Source of the DNA: Patescibacteria group bacterium
GTDB taxonomy: Bacteria > Bacillota > UBA4882 > JAAYXC01
DNA: 64,000 nt
Direction of reading: 5' to 3'
Assembly: GCA_050260175.1 (NCBI GenBank)
Contig: JBLNBS010000053.1
Location: 9,815 to 73,814 of the forward strand
This document shows, piece after piece, positions 2,558-46,981 of the stretch (positions are counted from its first letter, which is position 1; every line of letters begins with the position of its first letter). Below the pieces are notes generated by a model. The model worked only from the letters and a program-made list of their open reading frames with translations, was not told where the DNA came from and made no database searches. The translations under genes were made by a program, and so were the position numbers.

Positions 2558-4153
2558 ATGGCAGATAACCCGATCTTGCGCCGCAACGAGGAACAGACCA
2601 ATCTGCTCCTGGCGCGCGTCATGCGCTATTGCATCGGCTTCTTCGTCCTGATACTGGTCGTGCGATTGCTGGGCTTTTTCAGCACTCCCATCGTCCAGTA
2701 TCTGGCTCCCTTTGGCGTGGCCAGCGTGCTGTTGGCCCTGCCGACCCTGCTCATCGCCCTGAATCGCACGGGGCCGTGGTTCAAGTACCTTATCGTCGCC
2801 GCCTGCCTCGCGGGGGTGACCGCTCTCTATATCAATTACTGGGAGATCGGCCGCTTCATCGAGTTCCTGTGGCTCTTTCCGGTCATCATCTCCTGCGCGT
2901 ACGTCACGCCAGAGCTGACGGGTTACGCCAGCCTGGCGGCGCTCGTGCTCATGGGCCTCTTGTATGCCCTGGCCATGCCCAACCGCCCGGTCAAATACAC
3001 GGAGTACGTCACCGTGCACAACCTGCTGGGCGACCTCATCTTCAGGGGCGTCAACCTCCTCGCCGTCACCGCGCCCCTCTTCGGCCTGACCATCCGTTTC
3101 CGCCGGGCCATGATCGATCTGGTCGGGGCGGAGGAACAGAACGCGATCCTTTCCCGCCTGGCAAAAATGATGGGTGAAACGACCAAGGCCGCCGGCGCGC
3201 TCGTTTCGACCGCCGGCCGCCTGAGCGGCTTGGCGGCCGTCTCAGAGCAGGTGGGTGTCAAGGCCGCGGAGGTCGGCGGGGGGCTGTCGCGCAACTCCGA
3301 CGAGAACTTGAACCAGATTCGCGAGGCTGTCCCCGTCATCGTCGGCATGGCGGAACAGATCCGCTCCCTGGCCGGCGAGGTCGGCGAAGTGGCGAGGGCC
3401 ACCGAGGAAATGGACCGCATCGGCCAGGCCGGCAAAGCGGCCTTGGCCCAAGCCGCCGGGCAGATGTCAATCATCGAGCGCGCTGCGGAGGAAAGCCGCG
3501 GCCTGCTGGCGAGCCTCAGCGAACAATCCATCGCCGTGGGCCAGATCGTCAAGGTCATCACGAATATCGCCCGGCAAACCAAGCTCCTGGCCCTTAACGC
3601 CTCGATCGAGGCGGCCCGCGCGGGCGAGGAGGGCCGCGGCTTCCAGATCGTCGCCCTCTCCGTCCGCGACCTGGCCACGCAGGCCACCCAGGCCGCCGAG
3701 AGCATCACCGCGCTGATCGCCGAGATCCAGGCGCAGACCGCCACCGCCGCATCCGCCGTCGAGCGGGGGGGTACGCAGGTGGCCGCGGGCCTTTCGGCCA
3801 TCGGCGAGGTTCACGAGGCGTTCACCCAATTCGCCGCCGCGGAGCAGGAAATACACGCGCATATCGCCGATATCGCCGGCACCCTGCAACGGTTGGCGCA
3901 GGGCAGCGACCTCGTCGTCGCCTCCGCCAACAACATTGAGGCCCGTAACACGGCGGGCGTGGCAGAAGCCCGGAACGCGGCCGCCGCCGTGGAGGATATG
4001 CTGGACAACCTGCACCGCATCCGCATGGAACTCGCGCAACTCCAGGAGACCGCCGCGGTTCTCCATGCCCTGGGCGGCAGCCCCGTTCCCCACCCGGCGG
4101 CGGAGACTGCGCCCGGCTTTACGCGGCCGGCGGCTGCTTCCCCCTCATTATAA
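2558..4153 (+). CDS. Methyl-accepting chemotaxis protein with a polytopic N-terminal membrane domain
   Basis: RBS GGGGAGGGGG then ATG at 2558. About 6 predicted TM helices at the N-terminus. The C-terminal MCP signalling domain includes the highly conserved segment [24 protein letters not shown]. Confidence 0.85.
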
Positions 4154-6090: not shown

Positions 6091-6687
6091 TCAGGCCTGC
6101 GCGGGTGTCGGCGGCGGCACGGCCCCGGCCGGCGCGGACAGCGTCCCGGTCATGTCCGCGTACAACACCGCCCCGGCCATCGTGGCGATGCTGGCCGTGA
6201 CGAGGACCCCGACGCAGCAGACGAGGATGCCCGAGATGCCGATCAAAAAGCTCAGGACGGAAAAGCCCAGGAATTTACCGTAATGCCTGCTGGCCGTCTG
6301 CCACGAGGCCGAGATGGCCTTGTCCCAGGAGAGGCCCCCGTCGATGACAAAAGCGTATGTAAGGACGAAGAACGGATAGAGAAAGAGCCCGGGCAGGAAG
6401 CAGAGGATGAAGGAGACACCCAGGATCAGGCTGACGATGAGCCCGGCCAGGAATGCGTCCACGAAACGGTCGAAACCGCGGAAGATGTCGCCGAACTCCG
6501 GCGCGGTGCCGCGCAGGGCCTTGAGCGTCACGAACATGATGCTGCACATCACCGGCCCGAGGAGCAGGCCCGATGCGGCGCTGGAGATCATGTTGACGAG
6601 GAAGACACCGAGGATGAAGACCAGAGGGTAGCGCCAGAGCAGATCCCAGGCCTTGCCGAAATAGGATCCGACGGTCATGAGAGACAT
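6091..6687 (-). CDS. Polytopic membrane protein (DUF975/YciC-like), upstream partner of the DUF2752 gene
   Basis: Start MSLMTVGSYFGKAWDLLW at ATG 6687; four or more TM helices. The tool's longer N-terminus (start 6723) is probably 5' leader. Sits 40 nt upstream of the DUF2752 gene on the same strand. Confidence 0.55.
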   Translation of the reverse strand: MSLMTVGSYFGKAWDLLWRYPLVFILGVFLVNMISSAASGLLLGPVMCSIMFVTLKALRGTAPEFGDIFRGFDRFVDAFLAGLIVSLILGVSFILCFLPGLFLYPFFVLTYAFVIDGGLSWDKAISASWQTASRHYGKFLGFSVLSFLIGISGILVCCVGVLVTASIATMAGAVLYADMTGTLSAPAGAVPPPTPAQA

Positions 6688-7068: not shown

Positions 7069-7156
7069 GGAGGGGTGTCCGAGCGGTTTAAGGAGACGGT
7101 CTTGAAAACCGTTAGGCTGCAAGGCCTCGTGGGTTCGAATCCCACCTCCTCCGCCA
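7069..7156 (+). tRNA. tRNA-Ser, anticodon TGA (UGA); CCA encoded
   Basis: GGAGGGG acceptor stem pairs with CCTCCTCC (one G-U pair). Anticodon loop CTTGAAA. Long variable arm. T arm GGGTTCGAATCCC. 3' CCA at 7154-7156. Confidence 0.85.
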
Positions 7157-7267: not shown

Positions 7268-7316
7268 CAGGGGAAAGAGTCAAAAAGTCGAAAAGTTATA
7301 AAGTCATGGTTTTTAC

Positions 7317-7408
7317 GGAGAGGTACCCAAGCCGGTCGAAGGGGACGGTTTGCTAAACCGTTAGTGGTCGTAAGGCCAGCGGGGGTTCGAATCCCCCCCT
7401 CTCCGCCA
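7317..7408 (+). tRNA. tRNA-Ser, anticodon GCT (GCU); CCA encoded
   Basis: GGAGAGG pairs perfectly with CCTCTCC. Anticodon loop TTGCTAA. Long variable arm. T arm GGGGGTTCGAATCCCCC. CCA at 7406-7408. Confidence 0.85.
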
Positions 7409-13120: not shown

Positions 13121-14508
13121 CGGTCATGCCACCCCTGGCCCTGATCCTCGCCCCGGTCATCCTGGGCCTTGTCCTGCGCTCCCTTTTTACCTGGCGTTTC
13201 TTGGCCCTGGCCGGCCTGGGAGTGCCCTTTATCCTGCTCGGGGCCCGCGCGGGCCAGCCCCCCACCGCCCTGCTCCTGGCCTACGACGGCCTGCTCTTCT
13301 GCGCCTGCCTCCTGGATTATTTCCTCACTCCCCGGCCGCGCCGGTTCACCCTCACGCGCCGCGTGGACGGGGTGCTCTCGCTCGGCGAGCCCAACCGGGT
13401 GGCGGTGGAGGTGGAGTACCGCGCCGGCGCGCGCTCAGGATACCGGACCCGCCTCCTGGTCCGGGACGAGCCGCCGCCGGAGTTCGAGGCCGGGGACGGG
13501 GGCACGATGACGGCCGTGCTCGCCCCGGGCCGGACGGCGCTCCTCTCCTACACGGTGCGGCCGCCGCGGCGTGGGCTGCACCATTTCGGCCGCCTGCACC
13601 TGCGCTACCGCGGGCGGCTGGGCCTCATCGTCCGCCAGGCCCGCTACGAGGCGGCGGCCGCGGTCAAGGTCTACCCCGACGTGCTCATGGTGAAAAAGTT
13701 CGAGCTTTTGGCCCGGGCCGGCCGCCTGACCGCCATGGGCTTGAGAGCTGCCAGGCTGCGCGGCACGGGCACGAATTTCGAGAGCGTGCGGGAGTACGTG
13801 CCGGGCGACGAATACCGCTGGATCAACTGGAAGGCCACGGCCCGGCGCGGCCGGCCGCAGACCAACGAGTACCAGCTCGAGCAGGTGCAGAACGTCTTTC
13901 TGCTCTTTGACACCGGCAGGATGATGGTCACCCGGGCGCGCGGCATGGCCAGGCTGGACCACGCCATCAACGCCGGCCTCATGCTGGCCTACGTGGCGGC
14001 TGGCAAGGGCGACCGCGTGGGGGCCATGGCATTCGGCGAGGAGATCCTGGGCTACCTGGCGCCCGGCAAGGGCCGCGGCCAGGTGGCGCGCCTCACGGAG
14101 TTCCTCTACCCCCTGCAGGCGGAGATGGTCGAGTCCGACTACGCCAGGGCCTTCGCCCATTTTGCGGCCAAGAACCACAAGCGGGGCCTGGTCTGCGTCT
14201 TTACCGACCTCATCGACGAGGAGGTCTCAGGCCTGCTCCTGGCCCACATGGCCGCCCTGGCGCCGCGCCACATCCCCCTCTGCGTGGCGCTGCGCGACCC
14301 ATTGCTGGACGAGGCGGCGCGGGAGGAGATCGCCGAGGCCCGCACCATCTACACCAAGGCCGTGGCCGAGCAGGTCCTGGCCGACCGGGCACGGGCCAGG
14401 CGTTTTCTCGAGCGCCGCGGCGTGCTGGTCGTGGACGTGCCGCCCGAGGAGATGAGCGTGGCGGTGGTCAACAGGTATTTGGAGTTGAAGGAGCGGGGGA
14501 GGATCTAG
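13117..14508 (+). CDS. DUF58 protein (vWA-like partner of MoxR). Start GTG 13117 or ATG 13126.
   Basis: [42 protein letters not shown] is the DUF58 core. The 4-nt overlap with the MoxR gene indicates coupling. Confidence 0.85.
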
Positions 14509-14547
14509 GGCCGGGGGGACGGGGTGAAGGGGTGACTAGGTGAAGGG

Positions 14548-14596
14548 GTGAGAGAACCGAGCCGGCGGCGGCCTATAGACCGCCGCTATTCTCACC
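14548..14596. terminator. Bidirectional stem-loop between the convergent DUF58 and amidohydrolase genes
   Basis: GTGAGAGAA ... GCGGCGG CCTATAGA CCGCCGC ... TTCTCAC. Three copies of GAAGGGGTGA occur within 14520-14720. Confidence 0.4.
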
Positions 14597-14732
14597 AAGG
14601 ACCTTGAACGGCCCTAGGATCGGATGGCCGGCCCACCCAGGGATGGGTTTAGTGAGATTAGCCCCGAGTTTACTCCGGGGTGGAGGGCATTGGAGTTTTC
14701 GAGACGCTCCTGCCGGAAGGGGTGATAAGAGT

Positions 14733-15542
14733 TCACCCCGGCATGACCGAAAGCGCTCTCCCCAACATCCGCCCCGCGTTCCCCGCCAGGATCGCCTCCT
14801 CATCCGCCGCCGCCAATCCCAGCCCACGGATCTGCGCCACGGCCTCCCCCTGGTCCCCCCACGGCGAGTCGCTACCAAAGAGGATGCGGTCCGTCCCGTG
14901 AGCCAGGATGATCTCCCGCATGTCCTCGGCGCCGAGCTTGTGAAAGCAGTATGAGGTGTCGAGGTAAAGCGGCCGGCCGACGAGATGCTCCCGGGCTTCT
15001 TTCCAAAGGAGGTACCCGCCCAGGTGCGCGGCGATGAAGCGGCCGCCGGGGAAGGCGTCGATGGCGCGGCGCAGCCTGGCGGGCGTGCAGTGGCACGGCT
15101 CGGGGAGCCCCAGGTCCACGCCGGCGTGGAAGAGGATGGCAAGCCCCGCCTCGCACAGGGCCTCGTAGAGCGGGAAGACGGCCGGGTCGTCGACGAAGAA
15201 ATCCTGGTAGTCCGGGTGGAACTTGACGCCGAGGAGGCCCAGGTCTTTGAGGCGCGCGATCTCGCCGCGCCAATCCGGGGTGGCGGGGTGGATGCTGCCA
15301 AAGGCCAGGATCCTCGCCGAGCGGATGGACACGGCCCAGCCGTTGACGCTCCTCTCCTGGCCCGGCCGGGTGGCGATGGGCTGGACGACCGCGATGTCGA
15401 TCCCGGCCCTGTCCATGGACGCCGCCAGGGCGCCCAGGGTGCCGTCGAGCGCGGTCCCGATCCCCGCCCTTGCCGCCATGGCGGGCACCGCCCGCCGGGC
15501 GAGGTCGTCCGGGAAACAATGGACGTGGAAATCGAGGATCAA
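14733..15542 (-). CDS. Amidohydrolase-2 family metal-dependent hydrolase (TIM barrel); proposed TTG start
   Basis: AAAGGAG then 8 nt then TTG gives MILDFHVHCF, a canonical Amidohydro_2 N-terminus. The tool's upstream extension to 15728 is probably 5' leader. Confidence 0.7.
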   Translation of the reverse strand: MILDFHVHCFPDDLARRAVPAMAARAGIGTALDGTLGALAASMDRAGIDIAVVQPIATRPGQERSVNGWAVSIRSARILAFGSIHPATPDWRGEIARLKDLGLLGVKFHPDYQDFFVDDPAVFPLYEALCEAGLAILFHAGVDLGLPEPCHCTPARLRRAIDAFPGGRFIAAHLGGYLLWKEAREHLVGRPLYLDTSYCFHKLGAEDMREIILAHGTDRILFGSDSPWGDQGEAVAQIRGLGLAAADEEAILAGNAGRMLGRALSVMPG

Positions 15543-15922
15543 AGCTAGTACTCCTTTAGATCTGGCATTGGCGGGTACAATTCCACGCCGGATTGAGGAT
15601 ATCCTGCGTTGAATGATCCTGGTCGTTCCCCCTATCCCCGTGCGATCCGCTAAATTGTCCTGACGGAGGAGGGGTGCAATATATTGCGCCACTACACAGG
15701 ACCGATAGGTCGAAAACCTTTTCACCATTGGATCCTTGATCGGCTTTTAAGTCAACCGGTCTAGGCTTCATCGACCAACCCTTGCTCCCCCCGGGAGATA
15801 GAGGGCCTCTTCTTCGACCATCCCCAAGATCGGCGTGAACGTTTAGCCTCTCCGCCTCCCGATCCCCCGCCCGCTGCGCATACTACCTTTGCGAATCGAG
15901 ATCAAAAAGGAAGCGAAACGCC

Positions 15923-23833: not shown

Positions 23834-23995
23834 TCTCCACGGCGTCCCCGTCCGGGTCCAGGATGTCCTCGAGCGGCGCCCCCGCGCTGCCCGTGCAGAT
23901 CTGGTGCAGGAACCGGGCCCCTCTGGCTCCGAGGCTATTCAGCCGCTGTCTTGCTGATCCACGAGCGACGAGCGGCCAGCGACGAGCTGCGAAAT

Positions 23996-44355: not shown

Positions 44356-45162
44356 ATGCCGATCAAGCTCCTCCTCGTGGATCTCGACGACACTCTGTTA
44401 GGCGGGGATCAGACGATCTCGCCCGCCAACCGCGAGGCCCTGCTGCTCGCGGCCGGGCGGGGGGTAATGGTCGCCCTCGCCACGGGCCGCATGTACCAAT
44501 CCGCGCGGCCGTATGCCGAGGAACTTGCGCTCACGCTCCCCGTGATCGCGTACAACGGCGCCCTAGCGCGGCCGCTGTCCGGCCCGCCACTCTGGCATCA
44601 GCCCCTGGCCAACGGCGTTGCCCGGGCACTCCTCGCCCGCCTGGCCCGGTACGACGTGACGGTCAACCTCTACCTCGAGGACGAGCTGTACGTGGCCCGT
44701 CTGGATGAGCGCGCCGCCGCGTACGCCGCCAACACCCGCGTGCGCGCGATCCCCGTCGGCGATCTCGGGGCGTTCCTGGGGAGGCGGCGGCCCACCAAGC
44801 TCCTGGCGATCGGCAGGCCCGAGACCGTAACGGCGCTCCGCCTCCGGCTCGGGGAGGAGTTCCGCGGGCGGGCGGAGATCGTTCCCTCCAAGCCCGCCTA
44901 CCTCGAGATCATGGCGCCCGGCGTCACCAAGGGGGCCGCTTTGGCCCGGCTCGCTTCCGGGCTCGGCATCGCCCGCGACGAAACCATGGCCGTGGGCGAC
45001 GGCCCGAACGACCTCGGAATGCTGGCCTGGGCCGGGATTGGGGTGGCGGTGGGCAATGCCGCCCCCGAGGTCCTGGCGGCCGCGGCGCGCGTGGTGGCGC
45101 CGAGCGGCCGCGACGGCGTGGCGGAGGCGGTCAGGAGGTTCATCCTGGAGGATAGAGGTTAG
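44356..45162 (+). CDS. Cof-type HAD-IIB phosphatase
   Basis: LLLVDLDDTLL motif I and C-terminal GDGPNDLGML. Confidence 0.85.
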   Translation: MPIKLLLVDLDDTLLGGDQTISPANREALLLAAGRGVMVALATGRMYQSARPYAEELALTLPVIAYNGALARPLSGPPLWHQPLANGVARALLARLARYDVTVNLYLEDELYVARLDERAAAYAANTRVRAIPVGDLGAFLGRRRPTKLLAIGRPETVTALRLRLGEEFRGRAEIVPSKPAYLEIMAPGVTKGAALARLASGLGIARDETMAVGDGPNDLGMLAWAGIGVAVGNAAPEVLAAAARVVAPSGRDGVAEAVRRFILEDRG

Positions 45163-45315
45163 AAGTTGGAGGTTGGAAGTTAGAAGAACCCATCCATGGA
45201 TGGAACCGATCCATCCAATCCCAGGGCCATGCATGGTCTTTCGTGAGATTAGCGGCGTCCTTTAGGGCGTCGTTGGCTATCCTCCAACCTCCATCTTCCA
45301 ACCTCTCAAACCCCT
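45146..45315. repeat. Palindromic repeat array: purine-rich GAGGTTrGAAGTT units, a central CCATCCATGGATGG palindrome, then the complementary pyrimidine-rich units
   Basis: The left arm overlaps the stop codon of the HAD gene. The right arm carries TCCAACCTCCA and CTTCCAACCTC. Confidence 0.5.
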
Positions 45316-45650
45316 TCCTCCCCTCCCACTATGTACAAACCCGTGTTTAGCAGGACTTTAGCTCGGGGGCGCGAACTATGCTGGCGTAACAAAGCGAGGA
45401 GCAAGCCGCTCCTCTCGCAGCGCTCGACCGCCTGCCAAGGCTCCGGTCACTGAGCCATGACGGGCTTGTATGCAGGGACGGGGAGAGAAAGGAGGTGAAT
45501 CCGGAAGATTTTTGCGTGCTTCCCAAGAGGAGGCGGATCCCGCGATCCGGCGGGCCGGGAAACGTAACTTGGCGTTGTTTCGCGGACGCGGACCGCCGGG
45601 CCGGCTCCTCCAAAGGCTCAACGCACAGAGCAAGAATCCAAGGAGGAAAC

Positions 45651-46643
45651 ATGTTGATGAAGAAGCACATCATCGCAGCAATGGTCGGCGTGATGATCCT
45701 GGCCGTGACGGCTCCGGCCTTCGCGGCGGCCAACGTCGGCGGCACCCTGAACTTCGGCTACTCCTACGACACGCCCAGCGTGTACGAGAACGCTTCCAGC
45801 GGTTGGGGCGTGAACCTGAACGGCAACGTCAGCGACGACGTCTCCTTCCGGCTCGGTTTCGAGCAGGATCCGGCGGCCGATGACGGTTACCTGCCGCCCG
45901 TTAAAACGAATGCCATGCCCGACCTGAGCGAGGCCTGGATCCAGGCCAAGAACACCCCGGTCGGCACCGTGAAGCTCGGCGCCTTCGACATGGCTTTCGG
46001 CGAGAGCAACGGCATCTACTGGGAAGGATTCAACAACGGCGACGAGGATCGCCCGATCAACGTCCAGATCGACAACGAGCTCGCGGGGATCAAACTCTCC
46101 GGCGGCATGCAGATGGAGAACGTGAGCGAGATCGCTGCCGTCGGCGCCTCCGCCAGCCTCAAGCCCATGGAGGGACTTGACGCCACGGTCGGCGTGGCGG
46201 CCGAGCGCGCGGCCGGATGGGATCCCGCCGTCGGCTACAGCGCGACCTATACCGGCATCGAGAACCTGGCCCTCGGCCTCAAGGGCAACCTGGCCTACGA
46301 CGAGATCGTCGGCAGCGCCGAGTACGAGATCATGCCCGGCATCAAGGTGAACGGCATGTACGGCCAGAACTACTGGGACGTTGACGACCTCGCGGTCGGC
46401 GAGATCAAGCAGGCCGGCGTCAGCGCCGCCTTTGGCAACCTGCACGGCGGCGCCTCCTACGAAATGGTGACCGATCGCGTCGAAAACGGCATCAACACTG
46501 GCGACCACACCGTCATCCGCGTGAACGGCGGCTACGACCTCGAGCTGACCAAGGGCCTCACCCTCGGTCTGAACGCCGGCTACAAGGTGGACAACGGCAA
46601 CCCCTACACCACCGTCGGCGCCACCGCCGGGATCAACTTCTAA
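45651..46643 (+). CDS. Outer-membrane beta-barrel (porin-like) protein with a C-terminal Phe
   Basis: RBS AAGGAGG. Signal peptide. Alternating hydrophobic beta-strand pattern. C-terminus ...TVGATAGINF. Confidence 0.65.
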   Translation: MLMKKHIIAAMVGVMILAVTAPAFAAANVGGTLNFGYSYDTPSVYENASSGWGVNLNGNVSDDVSFRLGFEQDPAADDGYLPPVKTNAMPDLSEAWIQAKNTPVGTVKLGAFDMAFGESNGIYWEGFNNGDEDRPINVQIDNELAGIKLSGGMQMENVSEIAAVGASASLKPMEGLDATVGVAAERAAGWDPAVGYSATYTGIENLALGLKGNLAYDEIVGSAEYEIMPGIKVNGMYGQNYWDVDDLAVGEIKQAGVSAAFGNLHGGASYEMVTDRVENGINTGDHTVIRVNGGYDLELTKGLTLGLNAGYKVDNGNPYTTVGATAGINF

Positions 46644-46832
46644 GCCACGGTTCCATGCGGGGGGCCCCCGCCCCTCGCGTACATAGGGCTCGCAGCTCGT
46701 CGTCGGTTTCTCGTCGCTTGATGGCTTCAAGACATCCGGTCTTCACAAACGAGGCACGTTTTTGCCCAAGGCGCCGGCATTGAACTCACCCGCCACTCTT
46801 GACCCGCTACCCGCGGCACATGACTCTAACCC

Positions 46833-46890
46833 CATGCCTCACGCCCTATGCTTCCACGCCTCACGCCTCATGCCTCACGCCTCCACGCCC
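46833..46890. repeat. Short tandem heptamer-like repeats (CACGCCT / CATGCCT) followed by a T-rich tract
   Basis: CCATGCCTCACGCC ... TCACGCC TCATGCC TCACGCC TCCACGCC. Confidence 0.4.
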
Positions 46891-46981
46891 CCTTTTTTGT
46901 TTTTGCAAAGAAGGAAATTACAGATTGACGTAGAAGAATAGGCTGTCGATCAATCCGGATCAAACCAAGGGAGGACGGGTT

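Follow-up and report, generated by a model that had tools for sequence, protein, structure and literature searches.

The spacer upstream of a porin gene is a composite of a dispersed inverted-repeat element and a conserved, structured leader

The ~500-nt spacer between a gene for a HAD-family hydrolase and a porin-type outer-membrane beta-barrel gene, in a 64-kb stretch of contig JBLNBS010000053.1, is a composite of two units that differ in their evolutionary behaviour. The whole 64-kb stretch is called the window here, and all coordinates refer to it unless a related locus is named. The spacer runs from the HAD stop codon, TAG, to the porin start codon, ATG, at 45651. An initial annotation had treated it as one continuous 500-nt leader rather than two parts; when the spacer was aligned with those of related genomes, a sharp boundary appeared near 45331. 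The 3' side could be aligned in nine independent lineages, and the 5' side in none. We refer to the 5' unit as element A and to the 3' unit as the leader. The reading that we favour, with modest confidence, is that element A is a dispersed 3'-end RNA module of the HAD gene and that the remainder is the porin's own control region with a stabilising leader; transcription, termination and stabilisation are the steps of this reading that we infer. The principal features are the following.

44356-45162, plus strand: HAD-family hydrolase gene (Pfam Hydrolase_3, E 3e-54)
45146-45332, plus strand: element A
45331-45650, plus strand: leader (~320 nt)
45651-46643, plus strand: porin-type outer-membrane beta-barrel gene (330 aa, signal peptide, C-terminal Phe)

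Related contigs were gathered through a protein search with porin homologues, and the related loci fetched for comparison are numbered L001 to L017. Their porin proteins, from other lineages, are 46-55% identical to that of the window, and synteny is shared across the relatives (porin, MsmX-like ABC ATPase, FtsE/FtsX and a CtpB-like protease). The source is an uncultured, Bacillota-type metagenome-assembled genome (MAG), and its G+C (about 66%), gene content and porin suggest a place among Limnochordia-like diderm Firmicutes; sibling MAGs are labelled inconsistently at NCBI, as Patescibacteria, Bacteroidota or Bacillota. The relatives fall into one clade with HAD upstream of the porin and another (L008, L016 and L017) with a phosphoglucomutase-family gene (PGM_PMM, here PGM) in that place. 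In the PGM clade, the conserved leader block begins 10 nt past the PGM stop codon, and the array is therefore not an obligatory part of the porin leader. At every related locus the array is missing or replaced by unrelated sequence, and nhmmer and covariance-model searches for element A in the 17 related loci found no copy, matching only two places in the window. The HAD protein of the relatives is conserved as far as ...RFIL and diverges beyond this point. Here its last codons and its stop codon (TAG at 45160-45162, embedded in GAGGTTAG) lie within the first repeat units, as the initial annotation had noticed. The last 60 nt ahead of the leader are 52% C and 5% G; a compositionally similar tract precedes the leader in L001, L002 and L003, a shorter one in L014, and none in the PGM clade.

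These comparisons bear directly on the proposal that the whole 500 nt is transcribed as one leader, with the array acting in porin regulation through alternative hairpins or H-DNA. We regard it as very unlikely. The array does share its strand with the conserved leader and lies directly 5' of it, its CCUCC-rich 3' arm and tail could pair with sequences resembling a Shine-Dalgarno (SD) motif (RNAalifold paired UUCCUCC with the true SD), and far-upstream transcription starts of the cry3Aa type exist (PMC12970973). Yet the array is conserved in none of the eight other lineages that have the same leader, the 10 nt between stop codon and leader in the PGM clade leave no room for it, and a second copy of element A sits between unrelated convergent genes. 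The tract is also interrupted by T and has reverse-complement symmetry, contrary to what H-DNA calls for.

Element A is an imperfect inverted repeat whose arms are made of 7/14-nt units. Its parts, and the second copy, are listed below.

45146-45188, plus strand: 5' arm, six C-free heptads (TGGAGGA, TAGAGGT, TAGAAGT, TGGAGGT, TGGAAGT, TAGAAGA)
45184-45280, plus strand: conserved core with three hairpins, homologous to the reverse complement of 14555-14655
45197-45203/45211-45217, plus strand: hairpin H1
45223-45228/45235-45240, plus strand: hairpin H2
45252-45260/45265-45273, plus strand: hairpin H3
45277-45332, plus strand: 3' arm (45277-45306) and G-free, C/T-rich heptad tail
14508-14745, minus strand: second copy of element A (core 14555-14655; C-rich tail of TCACCCC units at 14508-14560)

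The tandem units at 45146-45186 return as their reverse complements at 45279-45306, and the complementary pyrimidine-rich units of the initial annotation were found where expected, as was its perfect palindrome CCATCCATGGATGG (45190-45203). The arms at 45154-45183 and 45277-45306, each 30 nt long, are 87% complementary; of the four positions that fail to pair, two are A·C and the other two U·U. No other non-overlapping inverted repeat in the window is as good. The 14-mer GGAGGTTGGAAGTT, allowing up to two mismatches, occurs four times in the window, all within this array, against an expectation of 0.31 (0/100 shuffles reach four); the search for repeat units suggested at the outset thus returned none elsewhere in the window, although the core does have its second copy at 14.5 kb. 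The C-free run of 43 nt (45146-45188) and the G-free run of 56 nt (45277-45332) are each the longest of their kind in the window. As RNA, element A folds at -75.9 kcal/mol, with a z-score of -5.6 relative to shuffles, while the DNA fold has a z-score of -4.4. GUUGGCUA comes after H3, and CAAACCCC after the closing stem.

The units had been called purine-only and the array a purine/pyrimidine mirror. The 5' arm is free of C, but T makes up 12 of its 43 positions (~28%), with TT in each unit (GAGGTT, GAAGTT), and the two halves are reverse complements rather than mirror images. Because the tract is neither homopurine nor mirror-symmetric, H-DNA is unlikely, and a triplex was rejected on the same grounds; reverse-complement symmetry instead predicts a hairpin or cruciform with several registers. 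Four such alternative registers among the repeat units (I1-I4) were found, so this half of the original suggestion holds. It was also observed that in the H1 region (45190-45217) GGAUGG is flanked on both sides by a CCAUCC with which it can pair (CCAUCC-AU-GGAUGG-AACCGAU-CCAUCC). This two-way pairing is kept in the 14-kb copy (CCAUCC-CU-GGGUGG-GCCGG-CCAUCC), and the H1 segment may be bistable.

The second copy was identified by blastn: 14508-14649, in reverse complement, aligns with 45187-45327 (E 1.5e-15), with 70% identity along 145 nt. The copy scores 119 bits with the covariance model. A plus-versus-plus comparison with 14.5 kb, based on a shared GTGAGATTAGC, was discarded as the wrong orientation, the real homology being to the reverse complement. 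The interiors of the two copies are 70-75% identical. At 14 kb, a lone GGGGTGA unit overlaps the TGA stop codon (14733-14735) of a minus-strand amidohydrolase gene (14733-15728), and the copy sits between two unrelated convergent genes; element A is therefore dispersed and tied to gene 3' ends. In each copy the 5' edge falls on the stop codon of a co-oriented gene, whose strand we take as the sense strand.

The two copies share the same three hairpins, with 22/22 pairs retained. Eight stem positions differ between them: seven are one-sided changes accommodated by G·U, and at one pair both sides have changed. Since a G·U pair on the sense strand is an A·C mismatch on the opposite strand, this pattern points to selection on the sense-strand RNA. 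Both copies close with a C-rich, G-poor tail of 7-8-nt units. We scanned intergenic DNA for 45-nt windows with no more than 3 G and with 19 C or more, and the sense-strand matches were the tails of the two copies; the one other intergenic match was the complement of the 5' arm of the 45-kb copy. The flanking units are unrelated between the copies, GGAGGTT/AACCTCC in one and GGGGTGA/TCACCCC in the other. As the 14-kb copy lacks the long closing stem, the 30-bp stem is peculiar to the 45-kb copy and not a feature of the family: the 5' units of the 45-kb copy are expanded into a full arm complementary to the tail, giving this stem.

We read element A as a dispersed, lineage-specific, RNA-level 3'-end module of the upstream gene that is not needed for porin control. 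It would act as RNA on the strand of that gene, its bulky structure would protect the 3' end of the HAD mRNA, and the structure, the C-rich tail as a loading site for Rho, or both, would block read-through into the porin promoter. On their sense strands, both copies have the sequence features of a Rho utilisation (rut) site, and Rho-dependent termination is accordingly a prediction from composition. Within 45146-45332, no terminator-like site was found on the plus strand, and an intrinsic terminator was rejected for want of a GC-rich hairpin with a U-run on that strand.

A doubtful, though not negligible, alternative is that element A is a selfish, non-autonomous mobile element at the HAD end, similar to a miniature inverted-repeat transposable element (MITE) or a REPIN, whose fold only reflects recognition by a transposase. 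The element is multi-copy, occurring twice within the 64 kb, relatives lack it at the orthologous position, and it supplies the last codons and stop codon of HAD. Related genomes also contain further inverted repeats with heptad arms, likewise dispersed, and a ~30-nt CGAGCGACGAGCG... motif, at sites that are not syntenic. Against this, the ends that a transposase would recognise are the arms, and these are unrelated between the copies while the interior is conserved, the opposite of the MITE pattern. No target-site duplication is visible, as no direct repeats were found flanking the arms. Hairpin substitutions preserve pairing by way of G·U on the sense strand, the two copies are oriented alike with respect to the gene upstream, and the viral contigs and plasmids searched for the array and the REP-like motif gave no match. 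A MITE in the strict sense was rejected on the unrelated arms (GGAGGTT versus GGGGTGA/TCACCCC) and the absence of a flanking direct repeat.

The leader, at 45331-45650, behaves differently. It is conserved in all nine lineages upstream of porin homologues, a point that the initial annotation had proposed to check. Among seven lineages, mean pairwise nucleotide identity is 66% in the leader and 64% in the porin coding sequence. An exact-pattern scan of genome and metagenome contigs with the block GCAGGGACGG...AAAGGAGGTG, a pattern too strict to catch the PGM clade, returned the L003 contig and three chance matches (L005-L007). Rfam was also searched, as had been proposed, and no family matched: Rfam 15 at gathering threshold gave only two tRNAs in the whole window, matches to 45050-45750 at E<=10 were confined to noise from miRNA models, which scored 9-20 bits where 40-100 is the threshold range, and four related loci at E<=1 had no match in their leaders. 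The features of the leader are as follows.

45331-45385, plus strand: promoter-like block, ATGTACAAACC-N4-TTTAGCAGGA(G/C)TTT...GAA, blocks invariant
45394-45418, plus strand: P2, variable hairpin GCGAGGAGC-AAGCC-GCTCCTCTCGC, in a length-variable alignment segment (columns 101-128)
45423-45485, plus strand: P3 helix stack (45423-45428/45480-45485, 45431-45435/45472-45476, 45436-45439/45465-45468)
45490-45497, plus strand: SD-like AGGAGGUG, 161 nt before the ATG, between the P3 and P4 domains
45507-45638, plus strand: P4-P5-P6 domain (~125 nt), in which P5 is a long hairpin and P6 is small
45507-45515/45630-45638, plus strand: P4a
45516-45519/45623-45626, plus strand: P4b
45527-45532/45605-45610, plus strand: P5 base
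45559-45564/45576-45581, plus strand: P5 tip, with loop AAC(A/U)UGG
45640-45653, plus strand: ribosome-binding site (RBS) AAGGAGG (45640-45646), 4 nt before the ATG at 45651

Independent minimum-free-energy folds of the nine sequences agree on one plan: P2, P3, a linker and P4-P5-P6. The helices P3, P4 and P5 are backed by compensatory changes. For P3, 93.9% of cells are paired, compared with at most 50% in slid controls, there are five double-sided pair changes, and 0/500 shuffles reach its covariation score. MAFFT alignments of domain 2 were mis-registered, so P4 and P5 were judged from the fold of each sequence, from a helix table checked by hand and from a duplex test that needs no alignment. 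There are GC/AU or CG/UA exchanges in each of P4b, the P5 base and the P5 tip. The sequence of P4a differs by clade (AGAUUUUUG/CAAGAAUCU versus AGGUCCUU/AAG.GAC.CU) and is paired in both, and cognate P4 duplexes have a mean of -13.2 kcal/mol, versus -8.75 kcal/mol for cross-clade duplexes. Hairpin insertions occur at helix tips in L014 and L008. The initial annotation was right that the leader is rich in hairpins, in that ~320 nt are conserved and covary, while the array it included is no part of the leader. The hairpin it chose as an example is present, but the large GCGAGGAGC/GCTCCTCTCGC form of P2 is a window-specific expansion and is not conserved. Its proposed folding check bore out both the stability of element A and a leader architecture common to the nine lineages.

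The first ~55 nt of the leader (ATGTACAAACC-N4-TTTAGCAGGAGTTT...GAA) have no indels in nine lineages, with some intervening bases varying. A candidate hairpin in this part, P1, has 63.5% of cells paired, compared with 35-53% in slid controls, and 37/500 shuffles reach its covariation score. In the formal count P1 does not reach statistical support as an RNA helix, and we therefore read these ~55 nt as probable promoter or operator DNA, the preferred interpretation of the sequence of 45331-45385. A sigma-54 promoter was rejected because the -12 GC is not conserved in the aligned sequences. The putative promoter arrangement AGGAGTT-N14-GAAAT in the block resembles promoters of the sigma-H type. 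We also observed a block, TTTTTTGTTTTTGCAAAGAAGGAAATTACAGATTGACGTAGAA, at 46893-46937, 5' of the gene for the MsmX-like ABC ATPase (46982), that is almost invariant in all related loci. It contains AGGAAAT-N14-GAAG, with the same spacing as AGGAGTT-N14-GAAAT 5' of the porin leader, and the ATPase and porin blocks may share an unusual promoter type.

The fixed spacing and invariant blocks of these ~55 nt, their want of convincing pairing and the presumed sigma-H-type likeness are what would be expected if the conservation of 45331-45650 reflected only DNA-level protein-binding sites and no RNA structure. We consider this highly improbable for the region as a whole. Past about 45420 there are double compensatory changes and hairpin insertions of variable length, unlike DNA operators, and for 45420-45640 the covariation contradicts it.

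AGGAGGUG is identical in 9/9 lineages and lies 154-192 nt 5' of the ATG. No start codon (AUG, GUG or UUG) was found within 14 nt 3' of it in any of the nine lineages; the nearest case is a UUG at 15 nt, in L001 only. A leader peptide or upstream open reading frame starting from AGGAGGUG, or from an AUG or UUG in the P5 loop, was rejected, as frames, lengths and start codons are not conserved. The RBS that had been annotated, AAGGAGG, is in place and starts 2 nt past the 3' strand of P4a. The porin control region would thus consist of the spacing-constrained promoter-like block, then a structured 5' untranslated region (UTR) of ~270-300 nt.

In our analysis, the leader is most likely an mRNA-stabilising or translation-tuning 5' UTR, which is its best-supported reading. 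The porin is presumably abundant, and the leader would keep its mRNA stable and efficiently translated: a 30S subunit stationed at the non-initiating AGGAGGUG, together with the flanking helices, would block decay that depends on the 5' end. The features expected of a STAB-SD, a stabilising SD-like motif, were found here, namely an SD-like AGGAGGUG inside the predicted 5' UTR, far from the start codon and non-initiating by position. The annotated idea of post-transcriptional control of outer-membrane proteins (OMPs) holds to the extent that a conserved, covarying leader fits control or stabilisation, and does not extend to the array. The sequence features that the initial annotation described are largely real, and its interpretation is confirmed in part: it correctly saw a structured porin leader but misjudged what the array is and what it does.

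It is also conceivable, though we judge it unlikely, that P4-P5-P6 is a riboswitch-like or protein-binding sensor, through which a ligand, protein, small RNA or temperature switches porin translation. In such a mechanism, the GGAGG of the P5 base would act as an SD mimic paired with an anti-SD-like CCUCC, and if P5 or P4 opened, CCUCC could capture the true RBS. A conserved domain of ~125 nt, the size of a three-way junction, with covarying helices, invariant unpaired motifs (the AAC(A/U)UGG loop and AAGGCUC), a P4a 3' strand that stops 2 nt short of the RBS, a P5 sequence (CCUCC or CUUCC) resembling an anti-SD in 9/9 lineages, and no matching Rfam family are all consistent with this. However, no alternative (OFF) structure with covariation support was found, the gene context gives no clue to a ligand, thermodynamic ensembles are ambiguous, and GGAGG/CCUCC may be just a stable helix. 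Rather improbable, in our estimate, is the joint claim that P4-P5-P6 is a new class of cis-acting RNA sensor (riboswitch, thermosensor or a switch responding to a protein or small RNA) in an uncultured Bacillota clade of diderm type, gating porin translation through exchange between SD-mimic/anti-SD and RBS pairing, and that element A represents a family of 3'-end RNA modules, not described before, with heptad arms and an anchor at the stop codon.

Several observations weigh against the composite reading of a 3'-end module followed by a stabilising leader. The element A family is known from two copies, both in the window, and the 14-kb copy has one 5' unit and no long closing stem. Neither copy has a U-tract, and neither is therefore a canonical intrinsic terminator. 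Whole-element fold energies favour neither strand. A selfish origin of element A has some likelihood, and would be compatible with a 3'-end role. On the side of the leader, the promoter-like block does not match the sigma-70 consensus, the predicted accessibility of AGGAGGUG is inconsistent (0.28-0.70), and its role as an SD is putative, being read from its own sequence.

The product of the downstream gene fits a porin, as annotated, of the Porin_4-like kind with a barrel of 16-18 strands. It has a signal peptide and a C-terminal aromatic residue (F), and homologues have PF13609. An AlphaFold2 model built from nine homologues is an all-beta barrel with a pLDDT of 75.7, and Foldseek against the PDB gave PorB, Omp32, chitoporin and OmpC as top matches (E about 1e-9). 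Directly 3' of the porin stop codon lies a GC-rich hairpin, CGCGAGGGGC..GCCCCTCGCG (46655-46685), followed by TACATA and no U-run. It is kept at the same position in L001, L002, L003, L008, L009, L010 and L014, and is probably a porin terminator or 3' stabiliser. In addition, a 194-aa protein (P0011) on an 8.4-kb ENA contig, with HTH_23/Sigma70_r4_2 domains, is 84-85% identical to ~40 porin residues, the match spanning 12% of the length; this may reflect an insertion sequence or an assembly chimera in a close relative.

Other repeats were observed in the lineage. The slot occupied by element A is variable, with different heptad-armed inverted repeats at L010 668-876 and L001 7957-8158 (TCGTCGC-type heptad arms, ~130-nt interior). 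Homology of the element A interior to variable slots elsewhere was rejected as not significant, with a best p of about 0.05 before multiple testing. The ~30-nt heptad-based motif, CGAGCGACGAGCG(R)CCAGCGACGAGCTGCG, occurs at intergenic, non-syntenic sites in several related genomes, singly or as inverted pairs around a ~130-nt interior, and looks like a REP/REPIN-like family. Its sites are listed here.

23961-23993, plus strand: motif between convergent GH31 and UPF0182 genes
46688-46720, minus strand: degenerate motif
L001 8125-8158; L003 1305-1338 (minus strand); L009 2355-2392; L010 834-866: motif in relatives

C/T-rich tandem repeats of 7-8 nt (CACGCCT/CATGCCT, CTCCNNGT, CCGCCTC, CNTACTC) were seen in the window at 46830-46892, in L002 at 3950-4070, in L003 at 1370-1480 and in L001 at 6480-6640. 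In several lineages they occupy the variable intergenic part, immediately 5' of conserved promoter-like blocks. A hairpin similar to H3 of element A, (GCU)GUAGCGGCGGUCUUCAGGCCGCCGCGA, occurs twice in L008 (237-262 and 4527-4550) and once in L017 (47-70), the L017 copy with a compensatory exchange (GCGGGGGUC/GGCCCCCGC). These hairpins may form a small family of their own, of repeats or of terminators. The two tRNA genes at 7069-7153 and 7317-7405 are the only Rfam gathering-level matches in the window, and three tandem copies of GAAAAGTC, at 7273-7296, separate the two.

Almost nothing is known about the control of OMP genes in outer-membraned Bacillota. The leader (~300 nt) is conserved about as well as coding sequence, is backed by covariation and is not in Rfam, which makes it a testable candidate for post-transcriptional control or mRNA stabilisation, and a promising one for a cis-regulatory RNA motif that is new. 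As element A shows, the eye-catching palindromic arrays of this lineage belong to dispersed modules folded on the sense strand and fixed to gene ends, which bears on how terminators and 3' UTRs are annotated in high-GC MAGs. Neither unit overturns current concepts.

Element A can be compared with three kinds of known sequence. It has in common with ERIC/IRU, BOX, Correia/NEMIS and REP/REPIN that these are multi-copy, intergenic, hairpin-forming and lineage-specific, at 100-250 nt; these families are also often co-transcribed with their neighbours and affect mRNA ends, which we list as a likeness. It has no sequence similarity to any of them and, unlike them, is conserved inside and not at terminal repeats. 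Unlike the ERIC-type families, its arms are tandem heptad units that differ between copies, it starts exactly at a stop codon, and it has a C-rich, G-poor tail. A REP unit is a short palindrome (about 20-40 nt) in many copies, frequently arranged as inverted doublets and accompanied by a RAYT transposase in the genome, whereas the element A unit is ~95 nt with three hairpins; the separate CGAGCGACGAGCG... motif is a better fit to REP/REPIN. Heptanucleotide repeats (Calothrix/Nostoc, Xanthomonas GGGAATC, Beggiatoaceae TAACTGA) are likewise tandem 7-nt units in intergenic DNA. The Xanthomonas repeats lie close to the 5' neighbouring open reading frame, at 28 nt on average (PMC4692102), and heptamers are the most over-represented class of simple sequence repeats (PMC4679880). 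The heptads of element A differ in building two complementary arms, one rich in G and the other in C, on either side of a conserved core of hairpins, in their unit sequences and in having no G-quadruplex motif; this core-plus-arms build is absent from the heptamer-repeat reports (PMC4692102, PMC4679880). Like the rut site of a Rho-dependent terminator, both copies have a C-rich, G-poor tract of 50-80 nt, predicted to be unstructured, just past the stop codon; unlike a rut site, half of the tract in the 45-kb copy is locked in the closing stem.

For the leader, the closest comparisons are with stabilising 5' UTRs. In the STAB-SD of Bacillus thuringiensis cry3Aa, a perfect SD that does not initiate translation lies far inside a long 5' UTR, and trimming of the long primary transcript leaves a stable species that is protected at this site (PMC12970973). 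In B. subtilis hbs, a strong SD and structured UTR protect against RNase Y and J1 (PMC5737220). The porin leader is similar in having a perfect SD-like AGGAGGUG at -161 (about -125 for the STAB-SD) with no start codon at the motif, in a Bacillota host and ahead of a gene that is presumably very highly expressed. It differs in the setting of AGGAGGUG, which is flanked by two RNA domains that are conserved, covary and are without counterpart in cry3Aa; on the porin side the comparison is one of sequence. The E. coli ompA 5' UTR is the classic stabiliser of an OMP mRNA (PMC1807950), and it too is a long structured leader before a major OMP gene, with a stem-loop near the RBS. Stabilisers of the ompA type have a stem-loop at the very 5' terminus of the transcript, for which P1 would be the candidate in the porin leader. 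The porin leader is twice as long and has no sequence or fold relation to it, and decay in E. coli involves RNase E, as opposed to RNase J/Y in Bacillota. Neither of the two units is a member of any described family, and both are of known kinds: element A is a dispersed structured intergenic repeat, and the leader is a structured 5' UTR of an OMP gene.

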